This document shows, piece by piece, positions 18,502-62,292 of a DNA stretch of 64,000 nucleotides. This DNA comes from an uncultured Candidatus Saccharibacteria bacterium (lineage in GTDB: Bacteria > Patescibacteriota > Doudnabacteria > UBA920), in the NCBI GenBank assembly GCA_964490395.1, contig CAZBAS010000006.1:8081-72080 (forward strand). The letters are read 5' to 3'. A program made the translations under genes and the position numbers. The notes under the pieces were generated by a model. The model saw only the letters and a program-made list of their open reading frames with translations, was not told the origin of the DNA and did no database searches. Numbering within the stretch: position 1 is the stretch's first letter; every line of letters starts with the position of its first letter.

Positions 18502-20289
18502 ATGAAAACATTTAAACATATAAACAAAAAATACTTAGTGGTAAGCGCGCTTGTAATTGCAGGCGCGCTTTTGGTGTGGAGTTTTTATTGGGTTGGGGTG
18601 TTTTCCGGTTCCCCTCCTAAGGTAGGAGGGGCTAGGGGTGGTATGAAAGAAAATGCTACCGTAATCCATCCTGCCACGGTCATGCAACCGGATCTGTACC
18701 CAACTTTGAATAAAGTGGATGAGATCCCTGCTGCTACTGAGAAAGTCTACGGCGGTATAGTATCCCACCATTTCTACATGGAAGAGGATATAGGGAAGCT
18801 GTTTTTACAGTTACGCCAGCAGAATCCATCTGTGGTGGTAATAGTGGGTCCGAACCATTTTAATGCAGGCAATGCAGACATACAAACTTCTACTGCTTCG
18901 TATACTACTCCCTTTGGTCAGCTCGATGGCGATCTGCCGCTCGTTAGTCGCTTGGTCGCAGACGGCGCTGCAACTCATGAGGAGCTCGCTTTTGAGCGCG
19001 AACATTCCATAGGGGCACTTGTTGGTTTTACAAAGAAAGTATTTCCAAATGCTAAATTACTTCCCATTATCATGCGTCGCAACGCAAGTCCTGGCCGTAC
19101 GGAACAACTTGCAGCTGAGCTTGAAAAAATACTTCCCCAAGATGCGCTCGTCCTGGCGAGTGTAGATTTTTCGCATCACTTGGATAGGTTTGCAGCTGGC
19201 TTCCACGATAGCCAGTCAGTGGCTGCGTTGCTTTCTGCGGACTTCAACCGCATTCGCAGTCTAGAAGTAGATAGTCCGCAGAGTTTAGAAGTGCTTATGC
19301 GCTACCTGGAGAGCCGGGGAGCACTGCATATGGAATATAAAAATACGAACCAGGCAGTGTATGGCGGTAACTTGATGTCCGATGACGTAACCAGCTATGT
19401 GTTCGCGAAATTTACGTCTTCTTCCAGCCCTCCCCCTCAAGAGGGGTCTCCCTCCTCTTCCTCCCCTAATATAGGGCCCGCTACGCCGGAGCGTAAGCGA
19501 GGCGAGGAGGCTAGGAGGGGTATAATTTCGAACATCGTACCACCCCTAACCCCTCCTATCCTAGGAGGGGGAAAAGACACAGCCACCCTCCTACATCTTG
19601 GGATATTCAATGCAGGCATGCTTGAATCTAACGAAGGCAAGGCCCTCTACGCACTTGGTGGCCCAGAAAATAATTTCCTCCGCGGCGGAGATTTAAAAGT
19701 TATTGGTACGAATAATAAAACAAGTTGTAACTCAGCGCGCATTCCAGCACTTGAGCGCTATAAGATCAATGTATTCAACTCACAGTCATGCGCAAATACC
19801 TTTGTGTTTGGCTCAGAAAATAGAAATTATAATGTAGGTTTTATTTCTATAGCTCAAGGTGAAAACGTAAGCAAAGCAGTAGCTATCCAAAAAAAGAATT
19901 ACGCTTACGTGGCTGTTCAGGTTCCCGCTAGTGCCGAAGCCCAAAGTGCCATCGATTACGGCGCAGATGCAGTCTTTATTCAAGACGGTGCAGCAAAAGT
20001 TGAACTATACAAAAACAAACCCATCATTCATCACCCGGCATCAAATACATCAGGTTTCAGTACTGGCGTAGTATTTAATCCAGCAGGTGCATCAAATATC
20101 GCAGAAGCTTCCTCTGATTCCTCCCCTAAAATAGGGGAGGCTAGGTGGGGTATAAAACTGTACACCTTCCCATACCAACTAAAAAACAATCAACTCACCC
20201 GCCTCGATATTTCTGCAAGACTAAAATCCTGTAAACAAATTTTAACCGGACTAAAAAATGTAGATGGTTGCTCTGCAAGTATCCAGTAA
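18502..20289 (+). CDS. membrane-anchored MEMO1-family (AmmeMemoRadiSam protein B-like) domain fused to a C-terminal domain of uncertain (possibly CapA/metallophosphatase-like) affinity
   Basis: Shows the N-terminal TM helix and the Memo-like motifs VIVGPNHF, TPFG, EHSIGA and SVDFSHH. The C-terminal segment AIDYGADAVFIQDG...LYKNKPIIH is CapA-like. The ORF is interrupted in-frame by three GC-rich palindromic elements. Confidence 0.6.
   Translation: MKTFKHINKKYLVVSALVIAGALLVWSFYWVGVFSGSPPKVGGARGGMKENATVIHPATVMQPDLYPTLNKVDEIPAATEKVYGGIVSHHFYMEEDIGKLFLQLRQQNPSVVVIVGPNHFNAGNADIQTSTASYTTPFGQLDGDLPLVSRLVADGAATHEELAFEREHSIGALVGFTKKVFPNAKLLPIIMRRNASPGRTEQLAAELEKILPQDALVLASVDFSHHLDRFAAGFHDSQSVAALLSADFNRIRSLEVDSPQSLEVLMRYLESRGALHMEYKNTNQAVYGGNLMSDDVTSYVFAKFTSSSSPPPQEGSPSSSSPNIGPATPERKRGEEARRGIISNIVPPLTPPILGGGKDTATLLHLGIFNAGMLESNEGKALYALGGPENNFLRGGDLKVIGTNNKTSCNSARIPALERYKINVFNSQSCANTFVFGSENRNYNVGFISIAQGENVSKAVAIQKKNYAYVAVQVPASAEAQSAIDYGADAVFIQDGAAKVELYKNKPIIHHPASNTSGFSTGVVFNPAGASNIAEASSDSSPKIGEARWGIKLYTFPYQLKNNQLTRLDISARLKSCKQILTGLKNVDGCSASIQ
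18607..18645. repeat. GC-rich palindromic element, short version, in-frame in CDS (encodes SGSPPKVGGARGGM)
   Basis: ggttCCCCTCCtaaggtaGGAGGGGctaggggtggtatg. Confidence 0.7.
19425..19572. repeat. composite GC-rich palindromic element cluster in-frame in CDS (CCCCCTCAAGAGGGG hairpin, then the long-version element, then a CCCCTCCTA-tcc-TAGGAGGGG hairpin)
   Basis: ccctccccctcaagaggggtctccc ... cctcccctaatatagggcccgctacgccggagcgtaagcgaggcgaggaggctaggaggggtat ... cccctcctatcctaggagggg. It encodes SSSPPPQEGSPSSSSPNIGPATPERKRGEEARRGI...PPILGGG. Confidence 0.7.
20119..20155. repeat. GC-rich palindromic element, short version, in-frame in CDS (encodes SDSSPKIGEARWGI)
   Basis: tCCTCCCCTAaaaTAGGGGAGGctaggtggggtataaa. 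Confidence 0.7.
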
Positions 20290-27961: not shown

Positions 27962-29470
27962 ATGGTTCATCCTTCACGCGTAAGAAAATTGAACACAGCT
28001 GAAAGTGGTACGGAAGGTCCGGTTGTATATTGGATGAGCCGAGACCAGCGCGTGGCTCACAATGCAGCGCTGGCTTACGCAGCACAACTCGCCCGCGAAT
28101 ATAATCAGCCACTCATGGTGGTTTTTTGCCTACGCAAAAAATTTGCCCACGGAACAGAGCGCCTTATAGATTTCATGCTCACAGGCCTAGAGGAAGTGGA
28201 AGCAGACCTCGTAAAGAAAGATATCCCATTTTACTTTTTGCTCGGAAGGCCGGAAATAGAAATTCCAAAATTTATACACGAGCATAGTGTTTCTGCTTTG
28301 GTTTCAGATTTTTCTCCGCTGAAGACTAATCGTCAGTGGAAAGAGCATGTATCCGAAAGAATCAAAATTCCATTGTATGAAGTGGACGCCCACAATATAG
28401 TGCCGTGCTGGGCTGCAAGTCCTAAGCAAGAATTTGGCGCATATACCATTCGCCCAAAAATACATAGGCTCCTTTCTGAATATCTGCAAGATTTTCCAAG
28501 ATGGAATTATACCCCACCTAACCTCCCCTATATTAGGGGAGGAAAGAATGCCGATAGTGGATCCATTGATGCAGACGCCTCCTCCGGTACCCCTCCTAAG
28601 ATAGGACCCGCTACGCTGGAGCATAAGCGAGGCGAGGGAGCTAGGGGTGGTATGGATTGGAGCCACATTCGATCCCAAATAGAAGTAGATACTTCTGTGC
28701 CAAAAGTGGACTGGATTGTGCCAGGGGAAAAAGCAGCACATAAAATGGTAAAACATTTTATTGCCCATAAATTAAAAACCTATAACGAAAATAGAAACGA
28801 CCCCACTAAGGATGTTCAGTCCAATCTTTCTCCCTATCTTCATTTCGGCCACATATCGAGCGAGCAAGTAGTCTTAGAGGTTCTCAATGCCACAGGCCTC
28901 AGTCTTGCCGAAGTGCTAGAAAAACATACTGCAAGCACAGAGCCACTTAAGCTATCGGCCACATCGTTTATTGAAGAGCTTGTAGTGCGCAAAGAACTTT
29001 CCGATAATTTTTGTTTCTACAATAAATTTTACGATTCAACAAAGGGGTTTCCTGCGTGGGCGCTAAAAACTCTGAATGAACATCGCGGTGATGTGAGAGA
29101 ATACACATATACGCTCAAGCAGTTAGAAGAGGCGAGCACGCACGATGACCTATGGAATGCTGCGCAATTGGAAATGGTTAAGCGGGGTAAAATGCACGGC
29201 TACATGCGCATGTACTGGGCCAAGAAAATATTTGAATGGAGCAAAACACCAGAGAAGGCCGTAGAGCATGCTATATACTTGAACGACAAATATTTTTTGG
29301 ACGGACGTGATCCAAACGGTTATACAGGCATAGCCTGGTCCGTTGGTGGCGTGCACGACCGCGCGTGGTTTGAGCGGTCTATATTTGGTAAAATTCGCTA
29401 CATGTCTTACGGCGGCGCGAAAAGTAAATTTAAAATTGCTGAATATATACAAAAGATCAATGCACTATAG
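27962..29470 (+). CDS. phr: deoxyribodipyrimidine photolyase, class II CPD photolyase
   Basis: The N-terminus VVYWMSRDQRVAHNAAL and the C-terminus GYTGIAWSVGGVHDRAWFERSIFGKIRYMSYGG are class II photolyase signatures. It contains an in-frame insertion of GC-rich palindromic elements. Confidence 0.85.
   Translation: MVHPSRVRKLNTAESGTEGPVVYWMSRDQRVAHNAALAYAAQLAREYNQPLMVVFCLRKKFAHGTERLIDFMLTGLEEVEADLVKKDIPFYFLLGRPEIEIPKFIHEHSVSALVSDFSPLKTNRQWKEHVSERIKIPLYEVDAHNIVPCWAASPKQEFGAYTIRPKIHRLLSEYLQDFPRWNYTPPNLPYIRGGKNADSGSIDADASSGTPPKIGPATLEHKRGEGARGGMDWSHIRSQIEVDTSVPKVDWIVPGEKAAHKMVKHFIAHKLKTYNENRNDPTKDVQSNLSPYLHFGHISSEQVVLEVLNATGLSLAEVLEKHTASTEPLKLSATSFIEELVVRKELSDNFCFYNKFYDSTKGFPAWALKTLNEHRGDVREYTYTLKQLEEASTHDDLWNAAQLEMVKRGKMHGYMRMYWAKKIFEWSKTPEKAVEHAIYLNDKYFLDGRDPNGYTGIAWSVGGVHDRAWFERSIFGKIRYMSYGGAKSKFKIAEYIQKINAL
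28521..28655. repeat. GC-rich palindromic elements in-frame in the photolyase gene (CCTCCCCTA-tat-TAGGGGAGG hairpin plus the long-version element)
   Basis: acCTCCCCTAtatTAGGGGAGGaaag ... ccCCTCCtaagataGGAcccgctacgctggagcataagcgaggcgagggagctaggggtggtatg. It encodes ...SGTPPKIGPATLEHKRGEGARGGM. Confidence 0.7.
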
Positions 29471-36822: not shown

Positions 36823-36831
36823 ATTTTCTTG

Positions 36832-36923
36832 TCCCCCTCCTAAGATAGGAGGGGCTAGGGGTGGTATGAGTCATTCGTAATAAATTTCGTACCCCATCTG
36901 ACTTCCCCTATCTTAGGGGAAGG
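36832..36923. repeat. intergenic copies of the GC-rich palindromic element (a complete short version plus an inverted partial copy)
   Basis: tCCCCCTCCtaagataGGAGGGGctaggggtggtatg (near-identical to the in-gene copy at 18607) and cTTCCCCTAtctTAGGGGAAgg. Neither lies in a coding region. Confidence 0.7.
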
Positions 36924-36963
36924 ACAGGACAAACATATGTGCTATTAATAATCGTATATATCT

Positions 36964-45571: not shown

Positions 45572-46267
45572 ATGTTAGGCGAGCGTGGTGCGCATGAAAA
45601 TTTGAACTCGACCATCACTGGCGAGGGTACCGACCATAAGCGCGCTATGGCCTATACGAATGCGTTCAAAACTTTCGTACATGAACATCCGCATGTTTTA
45701 CGGCAAGTTGAAACGCAGATAGATGAGTTATATGCTCAAAACCCAAAACCTGGGGATGAATTATCAACTCCTGAATGCAAGGTTGTATTTTTAGATAGAG
45801 AACCTTTGCATGATTCCGATTATTTCTCGGTTCACGTGGCAGGTAGGGATTTCTTTGTGAAAGCTCCTGGGGTAAATGAAGATACTACGCCTGCGTATGC
45901 TGAGGTGGTCGCTGGTCATGCTCTACAGAAGAAGCTGGAAGGCCTGCATATTCCAAAACTGAAGGTTGTGAAATACCACTTTGGCTACACAGATTCAAAA
46001 GGCAGAAATATATTAGTAGCAGATTTAGCAGCAAAGCATTGGAGAATAGCGCAGGAGTACATGAACGAAATATCGAAAACAGATCTAGCTAAAGCCGACA
46101 GCCTCCAGCGTCGCACCGATTACGTAATGCAGGTGTTGGACCTTACGGAAGGAGAGGGGGAATTTCTAGATATCCAGCCGTATAATATGTTCTACGATCC
46201 AGATACAGACGAATTAATTCTATTTGATATAAGCTATCCAGATTCACTAGGCGATTATGCTCATTGA
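45572..46267 (+). CDS. hypothetical protein
   Basis: 231 aa ORF. No family recognised. Confidence 0.45.
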   Translation: MLGERGAHENLNSTITGEGTDHKRAMAYTNAFKTFVHEHPHVLRQVETQIDELYAQNPKPGDELSTPECKVVFLDREPLHDSDYFSVHVAGRDFFVKAPGVNEDTTPAYAEVVAGHALQKKLEGLHIPKLKVVKYHFGYTDSKGRNILVADLAAKHWRIAQEYMNEISKTDLAKADSLQRRTDYVMQVLDLTEGEGEFLDIQPYNMFYDPDTDELILFDISYPDSLGDYAH

Positions 46268-47282
46268 TACTCACGCACATATAAACTTACACGCATTTAA
46301 AGATGATGCAGATGAAGTGTTGCAGCGGTGTTTTGCCGCGGGTGTGACTGTTATAAATGTGGGCACAGAATACAATACGAGCAAACAGGCGGTGGATATG
46401 CTCAAGGAATATCCGCTGCGTGTATATGCAGCCATAGGTCTCCACCCTAGTCATACGTACGATAATCCGTATTTAGATGAGAATGAAAGCGCGTCGCGAA
46501 GTGGGCAGGAACAGTTCAATTACGACGCTTATAAAAAACTGGGAGCGCATGAAAAGGTTATTGGAATAGGTGAGTGTGGGTTGGATTATTATAGATTGCC
46601 AGATGATGCGTCTACTCATGAATCTATTAAGGCGTTGCAAAAAGAAGCTTTTCTGAAGCAGATTAAGCTAGCGCTGGAACTAGACAAGACTCTTATTATC
46701 CATTGTCGCCCAAGCAAAGGTACCAACGACGCTTATGAGGATGTCCTTGCTATAATTTCCAATTTCCCCGTTCGGCAGGCTCAGGGCCCTGAACTTCTTG
46801 AAGGGCAATTTCCAGTTTCCAATGAAGGAAGTTTTCTTTCCGGCACCCCTCCTCTGGAGGAGGGGCAGGGGGAGGTCATAGTGAAGAATGACGATGCATC
46901 AAAAGTTTCTATGACCCCCACTAACTCCCCCTCAAGAGGGGGAGGACAAGAACTTCGTTTCGAAGTTCATTCGTTTACGGGACCACTCGAAATAGCACAG
47001 AAGTTTCTTGCTCTCGGCGCTTACATTGGTTTAAACGGGATAATCACTTTCGATAAAACCGGGAACATGGAGCAAGTAGTAAAAGGTGTGCCGCTGGAAC
47101 GAATAGTGCTTGAGACAGATTCGCCGTACCTAGCGCCTATCCCATATCGTGGTAAGCGCAACGAGCCTGCATATATAGAGCAAGTGGCAAAGAAAATTGC
47201 TGAGTGGAAAAGCGTGGCTTGTGAAGACGTGGCCGCTACTACAACAGAAAACGCAAAACAATTATTTAAACTACCTTTATGA
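46257..47282 (+). CDS. tatD: TatD-family metal-dependent deoxyribonuclease/hydrolase with an in-frame insertion of about 45 aa
   Basis: Has LIDTHAHI, GECGLDY and the HCR motif of the TatD family. It is 341 aa against about 255 aa typical. The excess corresponds to a GC-rich palindromic element cluster. Confidence 0.85.
   Translation: MLIDTHAHINLHAFKDDADEVLQRCFAAGVTVINVGTEYNTSKQAVDMLKEYPLRVYAAIGLHPSHTYDNPYLDENESASRSGQEQFNYDAYKKLGAHEKVIGIGECGLDYYRLPDDASTHESIKALQKEAFLKQIKLALELDKTLIIHCRPSKGTNDAYEDVLAIISNFPVRQAQGPELLEGQFPVSNEGSFLSGTPPLEEGQGEVIVKNDDASKVSMTPTNSPSRGGGQELRFEVHSFTGPLEIAQKFLALGAYIGLNGIITFDKTGNMEQVVKGVPLERIVLETDSPYLAPIPYRGKRNEPAYIEQVAKKIAEWKSVACEDVAATTTENAKQLFKLPL
46840..46950. repeat. 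composite GC-rich palindromic insertion in tatD (CCCCTCCTC-tg-GAGGAGGGG; GGTCATAG...CTATGACC; CTCCCCCTC-aa-GAGGGGGAG)
   Basis: Three perfect hairpins lie within 110 nt. They encode GTPPLEEGQGEVIVKNDDASKVSMTPTNSPSRGGGQE. Confidence 0.7.
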
Positions 47283-59228: not shown

Positions 59229-60050
59229 ATGAAATACGTTAAAGCACTGATAGTTTTTATTGGCATTGTATGGCTGGCTACTGCGCCTATTGCTATGCAT
59301 GCACGACCTGGTAGTATTTTGCATAGGGTAAATAGTATTGTAAACGAGCCTGTATGGGCCTGGATTCACATTACCCAAGATGGCCGGGCCGATACCGTGG
59401 AAAAACAGCTCGAGCAGCGGTATACAGACATAGAACATGCCTGGAATAGCAAAGAGGCGTGGCAAGAGCCGTGGGCGTATAAAGCTGAAGATGCCACTGC
59501 GGGAAGAGTAATTGCGCAAATACATAGCGCCATAGCGGCTCAGGACTTTAAGGTAGCGGACACGCTGACTGCACATGCCCTTGCCCTGTCCCGCGGACAT
59601 AAACAAGTTATGCTTGGCTTAATTACTAAGCCTGGCATAGGGAAAACTGCGGCAGATGTTACCTTTATGGATACGCGCATAAACGCACTTACCGAGCTCC
59701 GCCAGAGTATTGCCCAGAAATTTGCTACGGCATACAGTAGAACGGAACTGGTAAAAGGTATAGATGATAAACTTATACAACTAGATACCTACGTCGCCAC
59801 TGCAGATACTGACTTCCAAGTTGCGGACGCGGTAGTAGGGGATACAGAACGGCTGGCCATACAGAACACTCTCAAATACGCTAAAACATTGCAGGCCGCG
59901 GCAAAAGACAAGCTCGCCAATGACCAGTATGTAGATGCCTACCGCTATGCAAACGATGCAGAGGGCTATGCGAAAGAGGTTTCTATAGTAGTAACAGCCG
60001 CACAAGAGTTTTCCATCCACACTCCCACCAGTTTCCTTCCTGTGCAATAG
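59229..60050 (+). CDS. hypothetical secreted protein
   Basis: Has an N-terminal signal/TM segment (ALIVFIGIVWLATAPIAMHA). No family recognised. Confidence 0.5.
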   Translation: MKYVKALIVFIGIVWLATAPIAMHARPGSILHRVNSIVNEPVWAWIHITQDGRADTVEKQLEQRYTDIEHAWNSKEAWQEPWAYKAEDATAGRVIAQIHSAIAAQDFKVADTLTAHALALSRGHKQVMLGLITKPGIGKTAADVTFMDTRINALTELRQSIAQKFATAYSRTELVKGIDDKLIQLDTYVATADTDFQVADAVVGDTERLAIQNTLKYAKTLQAAAKDKLANDQYVDAYRYANDAEGYAKEVSIVVTAAQEFSIHTPTSFLPVQ

Positions 60051-61147
60051 TGGTAGCGACAGGAGCCAAACGCATGCAGATACAACCAGAAGACTACAAT
60101 TTTGAGTTTCCCGACTCTCTTATTGCCCAAAGCCCTGCGCATCCTCGTGATAGTGCGCGGCTTTTGGTTTACGACAGAAAAACCAGCACAGTTGCATTGG
60201 ATATATTTAAAAATCTGGTACAGTACCTACCTCCCCGCGCAGTTATTGTATTTAATGAAACCAAAGTTATTCCGGCGCGTTTCTATGCGTATAAGCCCAC
60301 TGGCGGTAAGGTGGAGTTGCTATATACAGGTAAATCGGAAAAAACTTTTGACGCCCTTGCAAATAGATCGCTAGTAGTCGGTGATGTACTTTGTTTTCGA
60401 TCCGGTTCCTCCCCTAAGATAGGGGAGGCTAGGAGGGGCATGAACCAAGAGCACGATATTACCGTTACGAAAAAACTATCCAAAGGATACCGTTTTACAT
60501 CGTCATTCCCCATTTCTCAGTTATTCTCTATTCTCGACAGGCACGGTGTTACACCTATACCGCCGTACATAAAAAATAATACATTTGCGGAAAAGAAACT
60601 TCGCACAGAGTATCAGACTGTGTTTGCGAAGTCGCAAGGCTCAAGCGCAGCACCAACTGCGAGTCTACACTTTACGAAAAACCTTCTGGCGAAATTTGAG
60701 AAAGCGGGAATAGCTACCGAGTATGTAACATTGCATGTGGGGCTCGGCACCTTCGCACCGCTCACGGAGAAACATCTGAAAACCAAAAAACTTCATAGCG
60801 AGTACTATGAAATTACGCCATCTGTTGCAAAGCGGCTGGAGCGCTATAAAAAACAGGGCAGGCCAATAGTTGCTGTGGGGACGACCGTGGTCCGTACACT
60901 CGAGTCCGCTGCTTCGCGTGCGGGAAAGCTTGGTAAGCTTTCCGGAAAAACTGAAATATTTATTTACCCGCCGTATAATTTTAAATTTGTAGACAGCCTC
61001 ATTACCAACTTTCATGTACCCAAGTCCAGCCTTATGATGCTGGTAGCAAGTTTAATTGGTCGTGAAAAGCTGCTTGAGTTGTACGTCTTGGCGGTAAAAA
61101 AGAAGTTTAGGCTGTTTTCGTTTGGTGATGGCATGCTCATAAGATAG
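60050..61147 (+). CDS. queA: S-adenosylmethionine:tRNA ribosyltransferase-isomerase
   Basis: Has QSPAHPRDSARLLVYDRKT at the N-terminus and conserved QueA motifs throughout. One GC-rich palindromic element is inserted in-frame. Confidence 0.85.
   Translation: MVATGAKRMQIQPEDYNFEFPDSLIAQSPAHPRDSARLLVYDRKTSTVALDIFKNLVQYLPPRAVIVFNETKVIPARFYAYKPTGGKVELLYTGKSEKTFDALANRSLVVGDVLCFRSGSSPKIGEARRGMNQEHDITVTKKLSKGYRFTSSFPISQLFSILDRHGVTPIPPYIKNNTFAEKKLRTEYQTVFAKSQGSSAAPTASLHFTKNLLAKFEKAGIATEYVTLHVGLGTFAPLTEKHLKTKKLHSEYYEITPSVAKRLERYKKQGRPIVAVGTTVVRTLESAASRAGKLGKLSGKTEIFIYPPYNFKFVDSLITNFHVPKSSLMMLVASLIGREKLLELYVLAVKKKFRLFSFGDGMLIR
60407..60443. repeat. GC-rich palindromic element, short version, in-frame in queA (encodes SSPKIGEARRGM)
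   Basis: tCCTCCCCTAagaTAGGGGAGGctaggaggggcatg. Confidence 0.7.
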
Positions 61148-61178: not shown

Positions 61179-61230
61179 CCCCGGGTTCCCCTCCCCAGGC
61201 GGGGGGAGAGGCCAGGAGAGAGGTTGAATC

Positions 61231-62292
61231 ATGCTTACACAATCCAAAGTTACAACTTTAACCAAAACTTTTTGGATATCTGGAACAGTAATTATTTTAA
61301 TTGCTATTGGGTTGGTAGCATGGCGTGTGTGGCCTACGAAAAAATCTGATTTTGCTAATGGCGCACAGGTTGCTGAACAAACAAAGCCAAAACTTGAGGC
61401 GACTATTAGCGGGCAGTTAGTAGCGCCGGAAATAGCTGCGCGAAGACCCATGGCAGTTATGGTAGAAAACCACCCGGATGCCAGGCCACAAAGCGGCCTT
61501 TCGCAAGCAGAGGTAGTGTATGAAATGATGGCTGAGGGTGGTATAACCCGGTATGTTGCAGTCTTCCAGAAAGATACAGGCGCCATAGGTCCGGTTCGTT
61601 CTGCGCGTGACTATTTTGCGGAACTTGCAGATTCATGGGGTGCGATATATGCCCATGTAGGCGGAAGCCCAGAAGCATTGGAACAAATAAAGAATGGCGT
61701 GTATAAAAACCTTACCGACATAAACGAATTTTACCAAGGTAACTATTTTACGCGCATCAAAACAAGAGTCGCCCCGCACAATACCTATATCTCCACAAAC
61801 AAACTACTCGAATACGAAGCAGTAATAGATAAGGCTCCAACAACTCCACCGCAGCCGTTCACTTTTGCAGACACGCCAGGAGTAGCACCTGAAGTCGCAC
61901 GTAGTATAGCCATAGATTTTTCCTTGCCTAGCTACAAAGTCCTATTTACCTACGACCCCGCAACGCAAAAGTATTTACGCTCTGTTGCCGGCAAAGCCGA
62001 CACCGATGCAGTAACCAAAACCCAACTTTCTCCAAAAACTGTAATAGTACAGGAAACAGATATAAATCCTATACCAGGCGATGATAAATTCCGCGTAAAC
62101 CTCCGCACCACTGGTACCGGCAAGGCCTACGTCTTCCAAAATGGCTACGTTGCCACTGCCACCTGGAAACGCGAACCCGGCAAACCAATCCAATACCTCG
62201 ACGCCCAAAATAACCCCATCTCATTCACCCCCGGTCAATTCTGGATCGCACTTGTTTCTAAAAATAATCCCTCAGCCGTAACTTGGCACTAA
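61231..62292 (+). CDS. DUF3048-like secreted protein (YerB-like)
   Basis: Has an N-terminal TM/signal and the segment MAVMVENHPDARPQSGLSQAEVVYEMMAEGGITRYVAVF, which resembles DUF3048. Confidence 0.5.
   Translation: MLTQSKVTTLTKTFWISGTVIILIAIGLVAWRVWPTKKSDFANGAQVAEQTKPKLEATISGQLVAPEIAARRPMAVMVENHPDARPQSGLSQAEVVYEMMAEGGITRYVAVFQKDTGAIGPVRSARDYFAELADSWGAIYAHVGGSPEALEQIKNGVYKNLTDINEFYQGNYFTRIKTRVAPHNTYISTNKLLEYEAVIDKAPTTPPQPFTFADTPGVAPEVARSIAIDFSLPSYKVLFTYDPATQKYLRSVAGKADTDAVTKTQLSPKTVIVQETDINPIPGDDKFRVNLRTTGTGKAYVFQNGYVATATWKREPGKPIQYLDAQNNPISFTPGQFWIALVSKNNPSAVTWH

Follow-up and report, generated by a model that had tools for sequence, protein, structure and literature searches.

In the 64,000-nt stretch of DNA analysed here (the window), the tatD gene contains a cluster of three hairpins (Table 1). 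Its product is a TatD-family hydrolase: it matches the Pfam TatD_DNase profile over positions 1-253 of 253 (E 1e-72, 245 bits against a cutoff of 27) and TatD/YcfH structures in the PDB (E 1e-41), and the core of its AF2 model has the TIM-barrel fold, with target-normalised TM scores of 0.85-0.89 to most of the bacterial and human TatD-family structures among its best matches. H6, H8, E106, H149, H238 and D288, which we take from knowledge of the family to be the metal ligands, are invariant among 30 homologues. The length of 341 aa reported in the initial annotation is correct, as is the translation of the peptide that it quoted (GTPPLEEGQGEV...SRGGGQE). The protein is also oversized as claimed, but the yardstick of 255-265 aa does not suit this clade, because clade-wide extras such as residues 68-85 bring the TatD of Saccharibacteria/CPR relatives to ~282 aa.

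Residues 160-231 face about 10 residues in solved TatD/YcfH structures, which indicates a loop insertion of ~62 aa (nt about 46760-46950). A surplus of ~45 aa had been placed at 46840-46950; the cluster does lie there and supplies 37-38 aa, but the total is larger and starts further upstream. It consists of three pieces, namely an AATTTCC heptamer repeat, a 39-nt imperfect palindrome and the three-hairpin element. The alignments with structures and homologues, together with the AF2 model, bear out the earlier statement that the cluster is inserted between conserved TatD blocks: the site is the loop that leads from helix 158-167 (alpha5) to strand 235-238 (beta6), on the N-terminal, non-catalytic side of the barrel. 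For residues 178-229 the model shows no secondary structure and pLDDT values under 50, against more than 90 in the core, and the insert is thus predicted to be a disordered segment at the protein surface, compatible with the fold and leaving the core unaffected.

Table 1. Coordinates of the tatD gene, its repeat pieces and related copies in the window.
Feature	Position	Strand	Context and remarks
tatD ORF	46257..47282	+	341 aa, TatD-family metal-dependent hydrolase/DNase
AATTTCC heptamer repeat, left part	46752..46767	+	direct repeat; encodes ..ISNF
39-nt imperfect palindrome PVRQAQGPELLEG	46768..46806	+	in frame, AATTTCC on either side
AATTTCC heptamer repeat, right part	46807..46828	+	encodes QFPVSNE
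Three-hairpin palindromic element	46834..46952 (boundaries approximate)	+	inverted dimer, two ~45-nt units with a 27-nt spacer between; ends TTCTTTCC.../...GGACAAGAA
Hairpin 1 of tatD	46846..46865	+	CCCCTCCTC/GAGGAGGGG (46846-46854/46857-46865), perfect 9-bp stem, 2-nt loop
Central hairpin of tatD	46874..46916	+	GGTCATAG (46874-46881)/CTATGACC (46909-46916), perfect 8-bp pair, 27-nt spacer
Hairpin 3 of tatD	46925..46944	+	CTCCCCCTC/GAGGGGGAG (46925-46933/46936-46944), perfect 9-bp stem, 2-nt loop
Canonical half unit SGSPPKVGGARGGMK	18604..18648	+	in frame, Memo-like ORF 18502-20289
Cluster in Memo-like ORF	19411..19577		TatD-type hairpin 19411-19446; half unit with nested 29-nt hairpin 19454-19526; inverted half unit 19534-19577
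Canonical half unit SDSSPKIGEARWGIK	20113..20157	+	in frame, Memo-like ORF
Two half units	28505..28654		in frame, interdomain linker of class II photolyase (ORF 27962-29470); minus-strand unit 28505-28545; plus-strand unit 28583-28654, containing a nested 29-nt hairpin
Canonical full (dimer) copy	36827..36929		intergenic, upstream of class II aminoacyl-tRNA synthetase gene; nhmmer; one long hairpin
Canonical half unit SGSSPKIGEARRGMN	60401..60445	+	in frame, QueA (ORF 60050-61147)
Degenerate family-like hairpin	61187..61252	+	intergenic; weak, E 1.4

Layout of the three-hairpin element

The three perfect hairpins announced for 46840-46950 are present, with arms of 9, 8 and 9 bp. Hairpin 1 is followed by the G-rich tail CAGGGGGAGGTC, and 46848-46942 as a whole forms an imperfect palindrome with 34-nt arms that are 74% complementary. 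The element encodes (F)LSGTPPLEEGQGEVIVKNDDASKVSMTPTNSPSRGGGQE and accounts for a net gain of 111 nt over L002, where the site is empty. The window has three occurrences of the pattern CCCCTC-N0-8-GAGGGG, where shuffles predict 0.01, and the element folds more stably than its shuffled counterparts both as RNA (z -3.0) and as DNA (z -3.7).

Related copies in the window and elsewhere

The element belongs to a dispersed family. The intergenic canonical dimer at 36824-36929 is matched from end to end by a TatD-type nhmmer profile (E 2.8e-6), which supports the proposed membership of the cluster in the CCCCTCC hairpin family; the variant cited at 19427 does stand there as CCCCCTCAAGAGGGG followed by T, but with 15 of the 16 quoted bases. 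Elsewhere in the window related copies stand at four places, of which one is intergenic and three are within genes (Memo-like, photolyase and QueA). The window contains seven strong canonical half units (nhmmer, E 7e-14 to 3.5e-12), with more copies in L001 and L007. Both dimers (36827-36929, 19454-19577, 46834-46952 and L001 706-812) and singlets (18604, 20113 and 60401) are found. The intergenic dimer has an RNA folding energy of -52.7 kcal/mol (z -5.7). In the alignment of 11 canonical units the stem is followed by C/T-T-A-G, a position at which the variant has CAGG. Canonical-unit stems have 99% of cells paired, with three pairs changed on both sides, and their score was reached by none of 500 shuffles.

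One frame in three is open on one strand of the canonical half unit and two in three on the other, and all intragenic copies, which are found in both orientations, use an open frame. Stops interrupt every one of the six frames of the canonical dimer, whereas the TatD variant has none in the frame in which it is read. Five full copies of this variant were recovered. Near-identical copies stand outside tatD in two further genes: one lies in frame in a UvrD/PD-(D/E)XK helicase (L013 1169-1286, in the same MAG as L001), and an ORF of L021, a third host with a weak, sub-threshold NAD-binding match, has a TatD-type spacer identical at 32 of 39 nt; both copies are read in the same frame as that of tatD. 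A canonical unit is likewise in frame in MetRS (L007), in a linker between domains. The host genes in this analysis, which are unrelated and retain their conserved cores, are those for TatD, the UvrD-type helicase, the L021 ORF, the Memo-like protein, photolyase, QueA and MetRS.

An exhaustive HMMER search with the insert peptide gave seven matches, among which P0127 alone is a true copy; two larger matches were read as repetitive proteins, alike by composition. A word-based homology search with the 43-aa insert gave no match, as no candidate had three 5-residue words in common with it. The exact 21-mer scan of genome contigs returned two true loci, both from one Saccharibacteria MAG, and four other matches, of which L010 and L014 are chance G-rich sequences and L012 is a GC-rich tandem repeat. 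The fourth, L011 (Oceanispirochaeta), has a similar short hairpin with a tail. Among three exact 21-mer matches in metagenome contigs none contained the full element; one of these contigs, L015, carries a similar hairpin and tail. The initial annotation had overlooked that the cluster forms one inverted-dimer unit belonging to a dispersed element, and that this element is also in frame in other genes.

Distribution and conservation among tatD orthologues

The three-hairpin element is present in four of 30 TatD homologues, which fall into three separate clades of a neighbour-joining tree (bootstraps of 90, 100/71 and, for one clade, weak support). The nearest TatD relatives of the carriers are either without the element or bear another one, and in the sister pair P0022/P0023 (bootstrap 100) another element is present in one and absent from the other. 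Between lineages the element DNA is 82-89% identical (81-92% at third positions), against 70-73% in the gene core (42-52% at third positions). The edges of this island are sharp, and the background is reached within about 10 codons on either side of the insert region, a drop that rules out gene conversion with long flanks between the lineages. In the comparison of the window with L001, 9.5% of codon positions 1+2 and 13.5% of position 3 of the element differ; the substitutions are thus spread nearly evenly across codon positions and leave no signature of selection at the protein level.

Other repeat pieces share the loop. The heptamer run is uninterrupted in relatives, where it encodes SNFQFPISNE, and its right part has an identity with L002 of 0.95 in nucleotides and 1.0 at third positions. 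The 39-nt palindrome is found in the window and in L006 (90% identical, against 69.5% in the tatD core) and is absent from L001, the gene cores of L001 and L006 being 93% identical; no second copy of it exists in the window. Equally long TatD proteins with non-palindromic DNA at this position had been named as the observation that would speak against a hairpin-driven enlargement; the relatives concerned (L018, L019 and L020) hold palindromes as well, of other repeat families, in the same loop. At least five different palindromic families are found in this one loop across relatives, and it can be regarded, from these and from the heptamer repeat and 39-nt palindrome of the window, as a permissive sink; it is possibly also a preferred target for palindromic elements. 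The two repeat pieces adjacent to the cluster (46752-46828) and a DNA conservation far above that of the host gene had escaped the earlier reading.

Discussion

We consider it likely that the cluster is a selfish, non-autonomous, dispersed palindromic element, which lies in frame in a permissive loop of TatD and is tolerated there rather than used. Each copy would be an inverted dimer of two ~45-nt units flanking a spacer, and each unit would consist of a 9-bp pyrimidine/purine hairpin and a G-rich tail. The tatD copy would be translated through as a ~38-residue loop rich in Pro, Gly, Ser and Glu, predicted to be disordered and presumably neutral to the enzyme. Removal of the insert from the mRNA, whether by splicing or by excision, is ruled out by the stop-free frames and frame-keeping lengths of the intragenic copies, since removed inserts would need neither. 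The element is probably mobile, and the most likely route would be the recognition of a single-strand hairpin by a trans-acting HUH/Y1-type transposase. No transposase or other mobilising gene linked to the family was identified in an examination that covered RAYT-type genes in the window and near tatD in relatives. RAYT was considered as a mobiliser because three relatives (L007, L018 and L020) have RAYT-like genes close to tatD; it was rejected, as the palindrome beside those genes is another one, TAGATGGGCATCATCTA, and the window contains neither a RAYT gene nor a palindrome of the TAGATGGGCATCATCTA type. At five junction pairs neither a target-site duplication nor a clear target motif was evident.

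It can tentatively be hypothesised, although we regard it as rather doubtful, that three Saccharibacteria lineages acquired the ~115-nt element, spacer included, independently at the same position of the tatD loop, or passed it to one another, after their genes had reached synonymous saturation. If true, a protein-free palindromic element would have to be targeted site-specifically, in a homing-like manner, perhaps to palindromes already in place, the alternative being strong nucleotide-level selection on a coding hairpin cluster. To our knowledge, no example of either is on record for bacteria of this phylum. Among all the features described here, the sharply bounded conservation island within an otherwise saturated gene is alone in hinting at a possible new mechanism, either targeted insertion or selection on DNA or RNA.

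Selection at the nucleic-acid level is the alternative that deserves most attention, although we hold it to be improbable. The cluster would be kept as a structured mRNA or DNA site, for instance an RNase III/stability site, a pause site in translation or transcription, a cruciform or the kind of protein-binding site suggested for REPs, and its conservation would reflect function and not recent arrival. The sharply bounded excess of third-position identity, the very high nucleotide conservation, spacer included, the folding energies below those of shuffles and the two-sided changes that keep the pairing of canonical units are all consistent with such a role, as are the two changes in the central stem of L007, which on direct reading of the sequence both yield G-U pairs on the sense strand. 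However, hairpin 3 has decayed in L001 and L006 (one mismatch and one wobble), the unpaired spacer equals the stems in conservation among the TatD copies yet is entirely different in the helicase copy, and intragenic units occur in both orientations. Most TatD orthologues are without the element, and the orthologue of the intergenic dimer 36827-36929, at L001 706-812, has drifted to just 60% identity; these observations argue against a maintained site. Far less credible is an adaptive, lineage-specific protein segment, such as a docking loop, selected for its amino-acid sequence. The frame is kept open and 24-34 of 37 residues of the peptide are conserved among the four TatD copies, but synonymous change is not in excess, disorder is predicted, the same peptide occurs in the helicase and in the third, weakly identified protein, and the carriers are polyphyletic on the TatD tree. 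Local slippage or duplication of low-complexity sequence, with no mobile element involved, is suggested by the slippage-type heptamer run alongside and by the direct AATTTCC copies that flank the 39-nt piece; while possible for the heptamer run alone, it is contradicted for the three-hairpin element by the same ~115-nt sequence, ends included, in unrelated genes and genomes and by the homology with the canonical family, and as an explanation of the insert it is most improbable. An assembly or chimera artefact, in whose favour nothing was found, can practically be dismissed, since the identical 341-aa protein is obtained from an independent Logan assembly of run DRR235452 (L008) and three further assemblies, made from different samples, also contain the element.

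Palindromic elements within reading frames were at first described as something peculiar to Rickettsia, and intragenic REPs were catalogued later in several phyla; the phenomenon, known from Rickettsia and some other bacteria, is found here in a Saccharibacteria-like genome. If the cluster is a selfish element as we propose, its closest counterparts in behaviour are the RPEs, short palindromic repeats, 100-150 nt long, that are often found in frame within housekeeping genes of unrelated kinds (Ogata et al. 2000, 2002, as summarised in PMC10969869 and PMC3733652). The element shares with them a size of ~100-150 nt, dispersal over a small genome, a frequent in-frame position in unrelated genes with conserved cores, translation as a fold-compatible extra surface peptide, and a presence that differs among related genomes. 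The likeness concerns architecture and behaviour, and no similarity in sequence would be expected. The host belongs to Saccharibacteria/CPR, unlike the Alphaproteobacteria of the RPEs, the units are pyrimidine/purine hairpins with G-rich tails, and next to the hairpin stands a CTAG/TTAG tag (CAGG in the variant), in contrast to the CGTC tag that is reported for RPE-4 and RPE-6 (PMC10969869, PMC3733652).

The REP/BIME/REPIN systems offer a second comparison, having in common with the present family a 20-45-nt hairpin unit with a short tail, inverted dimers that form a larger hairpin, and singlets. Intragenic REP dimers encoding 20-30 aa have been recorded in UvrD/REP helicases and tRNA synthetases (PMC3733652), the same kinds of host genes as the UvrD-type helicase and tRNA synthetase here, and RAYT-like genes are present in relatives. 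However, none of the 11 aligned canonical units has the GTAG or CGTC tetranucleotide that stands unpaired at one end of a REP hairpin, a large share of the copies is intragenic, unlike the extragenic REPs, and the lack of RAYT in the window and the other palindrome beside the relatives' RAYT-like genes set the family apart from RAYT-mobilised REPs. The length of ~100-120 nt, the inverted ends TTCTTGTC ... GACAAGAA, the dispersal and the non-coding nature of the element itself recall a MITE, from which it would differ in showing no target-site duplication at the five junction pairs, in having no known parent insertion sequence and in being palindromic throughout, not just at its ends.

At least five housekeeping genes in 64 kb bear such elements, which extends the phenomenon to another small genome, and the TatD loop constitutes a clean natural experiment on loops that tolerate insertions. 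Such inserts lengthen proteins and make unrelated proteins look alike through spurious low-complexity similarity, and they may lead annotation and the assignment of orthologues astray in genomes of candidate phyla. In the Rfam scan tRNAs alone reached the gathering threshold, microRNA-precursor matches merely reflected the long hairpin, and whalefall-1 (RF01762) was not found at threshold among the canonical copies of the window. Hairpin 1 with its tail (46843-46877) matches the whalefall-1 model at 25.7 bits, below the gathering score of 37; the model's 23-nt insert is absent here, and the two have in common a CUCUCC/GGAGAG-type hairpin followed by a G-rich AGGGUGAGGAC tail.

Results

The tatD ORF encodes a 341-aa protein that matches the whole Pfam TatD_DNase profile (E 1e-72) and solved TatD/YcfH structures (E about 1e-41). 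An identical protein is recorded independently in the Logan assembly of run DRR235452, and the insert is therefore not an assembly artefact. Aligned with PDB chains 2gzx, 6l25 and 1j6o, the protein has residues 160-231 where these structures have about 10, giving a loop insertion of ~62 aa; the initial annotation had recognised an insertion, but the 37 aa that it mapped fall short of this size. With 30 homologues as input, AlphaFold2 gives a model in which the TIM-barrel core is confident (target-normalised TM-score of 0.85-0.89 to the best-matching TatD-family structures), and residues 178-229, between helix 158-167 and strand 235-238, are predicted to be disordered (pLDDT <50, no secondary structure). 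In a TIM barrel, a segment leading from a helix into the following strand lies on the N-terminal side, opposite the catalytic face at the C-terminal strand ends. The conserved His/Glu/Asp positions H6, H8, E106, H149, H238 and D288 are invariant in the 30 homologues. TatD proteins of this clade have a baseline length of about 282 aa, with 289 to 400 aa in close relatives, and the differences in length are concentrated at two hot spots. The second, after DYYRLP (window residues ~115-120; alignment columns 135-198), is on the same side of the barrel as the catalytic face, and the homologues P0005, P0018 and P0030 carry inserts here that reach about 60 aa, with peptides (VIPD...LDSGS..AGMT) typical of other palindromic repeats; the window protein has no insertion there.

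The three hairpins reported in tatD are all present as described, and the window contains three matches to CCCCTC-N0-8-GAGGGG, where shuffles predict 0.01. Comparison with the syntenic tatD genes of the relatives L001, L002, L004, L006 and L007 splits the loop DNA into three separate parts: a heptamer run, a 39-nt palindrome and the three-hairpin element. Among these genes, the 39-nt palindrome is found in the window and L006 alone; L001 lacks it, and the gene cores of L001 and L006 are 93% identical. When folded, the three-hairpin element forms three hairpins enclosed by its paired inverted ends (z -3.0 as RNA, -3.7 as DNA).

Coordinates of the features discussed (window positions unless a contig is named)
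Feature	Position	Description
tatD ORF	46257-47282 (+)	
AATTTCC heptamer run	46752-46767, 46807-46828	encodes SNF...QFPVSNE; common to many relatives
39-nt imperfect palindrome	46768-46806	PVRQAQGPELLEG; splits the heptamer run, AATTTCC on either side
Three-hairpin element	about 46834-46952	net +111 nt relative to the empty L002 site
tatD hairpin 1	46846-46865	CCCCTCCTC/GAGGAGGGG
tatD hairpin 1 with G-rich tail	46843-46877	
tatD central hairpin	46874-46881, 46909-46916	GGTCATAG pairs with CTATGACC
tatD hairpin 3	46925-46944	CTCCCCCTC/GAGGGGGAG
Canonical hairpins	18611, 19550, 20120, 28522, 36834, 36902, 60408	CCCCTCCTA-NNN-TAGGAGGGG or CCTCCCCTA-NNN-TAGGGGAGG
Canonical copies in relatives	L001 710-805; L007 1730-1770	L007 copy inside MetRS
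Intergenic canonical dimer	36827-36929; L001 706-812	orthologous pair
Memo-like gene	18502-20289	at least four in-frame units, at three sites (18604, 19411-19577, 20113)
Class II photolyase		in-frame units in interdomain linker
QueA		in-frame unit
Helicase copy	L013 1169-1286	
Nested 29-nt hairpin	19476-19504, 28606-28634; L021 79-103	GCCCGCTACGCCGGAGCGTAAGCGAGGCG
RAYT-like Y1 transposase gene	L007 4595-5245; L018 3062-3706; L020 3983-4681	

A scan for perfect hairpins turned up stems of the same kind, 9 bp with a 3-nt loop, that make up a dispersed canonical family; its ~45-nt unit consists of TCYKNTY, the hairpin and YTAGGNGGGGTAT, and occurs singly or as inverted pairs flanking a spacer. 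The nhmmer profile built from the units detects seven strong window copies (E 7e-14 to 3.5e-12) and more copies in relatives. Across 11 copies, stem pairing is 99%, with changes on both sides at three pairs, and 0/500 shuffles reach its pairing score; the intergenic dimer folds into one long hairpin (RNA -52.7 kcal/mol, z -5.7). The tatD copy differs from the canonical form in its 2-nt loops and in CAGG replacing CTAGG. A profile made from the TatD-type copies has a full-length match to the canonical dimer at 36824-36929 (E 2.8e-6), which bears out the earlier assignment of the outer hairpins to the CCCCTCC family; the three-hairpin element is a diverged variant of the canonical family. The orthologous intergenic dimers of the window and L001 are located upstream of a class II aminoacyl-tRNA synthetase gene; their hairpins are kept, and the stems switch between CCCCTCC and CCTCCCC types. 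An adjacent terminator-like hairpin, upstream of the dimer, is well conserved between the two.

An exact 21-mer scan of species-representative genomes yielded two true loci, both in one MAG of an uncultured Candidatus Saccharibacteria (GCA_964556325.1): its own tatD and a second copy on contig L013. The latter is in frame within a 1088-aa UvrD/REP helicase bearing a PD-(D/E)XK nuclease domain; the frame is that of TatD (TPPLEEGQGEV...SPSSGGGQE) and the ends are shared (GCACCCCTCC ... GGACAAGAA), but the spacer differs. The 44-aa insert peptide, used as query in an exhaustive HMMER search, added one true copy, in P0127; this is the product of a third host ORF (contig L021), whose oxidoreductase NAD-binding match is weak, and the copy has a TatD-type spacer, 32/39 nt being identical to the window. 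Canonical units are also in frame within three window genes, of which the most heavily decorated encodes a 595-aa Memo-like protein whose Memo domain covers only residues 92-255. The canonical half unit has 1/3 open frames on one strand and 2/3 on the other, the canonical dimer has stops in 6/6 frames, and the TatD variant is free of stop codons in the frame read. Every intragenic copy occupies an open frame, the pattern expected from insertion followed by selection against broken genes; this confinement speaks for translation of the inserts over their removal from the message.

Between lineages, the three-hairpin element forms an island of conservation, with nucleotide identity of 82-89%, third-codon-position identity of 81-92% and 84-93% identical codons among identical residues, against 70-73%, 42-52% and 45-54%, respectively, in the tatD core. 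The edges are sharp, third-position identity in a sliding window reaching 0.2-0.4 within about ten codons on each side, and the 39-nt palindrome is likewise a conserved island (90% identity, window versus L006). Between the window and L001, substitutions in the element are near-even by codon position (9.5% at positions 1+2 versus 13.5% at position 3), and protein-level selection is therefore not the cause of its conservation. Between these two genomes, the orthologous copies of the intergenic dimer are only 60% identical. The L021 copy is 77-81% identical to the TatD copies and those of different clades are 79-88% identical, the former being about as near to TatD copies as TatD clades are to one another. 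Separately, third-position identity between lineages is unusually high in tatD codons 1-45 (46257-46390; 0.5-1.0, and 0.8-1.0 for L001 versus L007) relative to the rest of the core, which could reflect constraint from upstream-gene overlap and translation start, or recombination.

The three-hairpin element is present in 4/30 aligned TatD homologues, and its carriers fall in three places on a neighbour-joining tree of ungapped core columns. The window groups with P0004, P0006, P0007 and P0008 (bootstrap 90), all four without the element; the pair P0002/P0003 (bootstrap 100) joins P0013 and P0015 (bootstrap 71), two further proteins that lack it; P0005 is placed elsewhere with weak support. Core nucleotide identity agrees, L004 being closest to the window (78%) and without the element. 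Different palindromic elements occupy the same loop in other relatives, namely L018 (SSSRMRGS...DSRLHGND type), L019 (CCCTCCCCC hairpin with G-rich tail) and L020 (CHSESRSF...PQDDG type). Long relatives with non-palindromic DNA here, which the initial annotation had regarded as counter-evidence, are thus not what these loops present. One such other element is present in one member of the sister pair P0022/P0023 (bootstrap 100) and absent from the other.

Discussion

The best-supported interpretation makes the tatD insert a non-autonomous, selfish palindromic element that a permissive loop tolerates and whose translation yields a disordered peptide. The copies would be much younger than the host-gene splits, with which the patchy distribution and the conservation island are consistent, and would have been acquired repeatedly at the same tatD site. 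New insertions are perhaps drawn to existing palindromes; two forms of nesting occur, the 39-nt palindrome within the heptamer run and a 29-nt hairpin within canonical stems. The main rival explanation, one old insertion with many losses, would read the same patchiness as loss and the same island as nucleotide-level constraint. The island and the recurrence in three clades are the parts most deserving of further attention.

As regards mobility of a selfish element, a RAYT-like Y1 transposase gene lies at the same syntenic position, directly upstream of leuS, in three relatives (Pfam Y1_Tnp 29.5 bits, over cutoff; NCBIfam REP_Tyr_transpos 51.9 bits, under the cutoff of 80). With its own inverted palindrome on both sides (TAGATGGGCATCATCTA / GTCTAGATGGTGCCCATCTCGAC), it looks like a REPtron; neither the gene nor the TAGATGGGCATCATCTA motif was found in the window. 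Rickettsia palindromic elements and intragenic REP dimers are described as selfish palindromes tolerated in genes and translated; the latter are on record from UvrD/REP helicases and from tRNA synthetases, with possible recurrence at roughly the same gene site (PMC10969869, PMC3733652). The element described here works like a REP dimer or RPE, yet falls outside both named families, since the canonical units have CTAG/TTAG beside the stem in place of the catalogued REP tags GTAG or CGTC, the RAYT-like genes are bordered by a palindrome differing from the three-hairpin element, and the junctions examined show no sign of a target-site duplication. A literature search on Saccharibacteria, Patescibacteria and the candidate phyla radiation returned, within the literature covered, no report of palindromic, intragenic or MITE elements like these. 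Protein-coding palindromic repeats are already known; the phylum of occurrence is new. The overall observation of the initial annotation is confirmed and its interpretation supported, with size and scope corrected.

The nested 29-nt hairpin sits at the same position in the 3' arm of three separate canonical copies, and looks like a small element targeting the family's own stem. In Rfam, only tRNAs were returned at the gathering threshold; tatD hairpin 1 with its G-rich tail gives a sub-threshold match (25.7 bits versus a gathering score of 37) to whalefall-1, a metagenome-only motif with the same hairpin-plus-G-tail layout; both may fall within one broad class of G-tailed repeat hairpins. Similar hairpin-plus-tail sequences occur in an Oceanispirochaeta MAG (L011) and a metagenome contig (L015).
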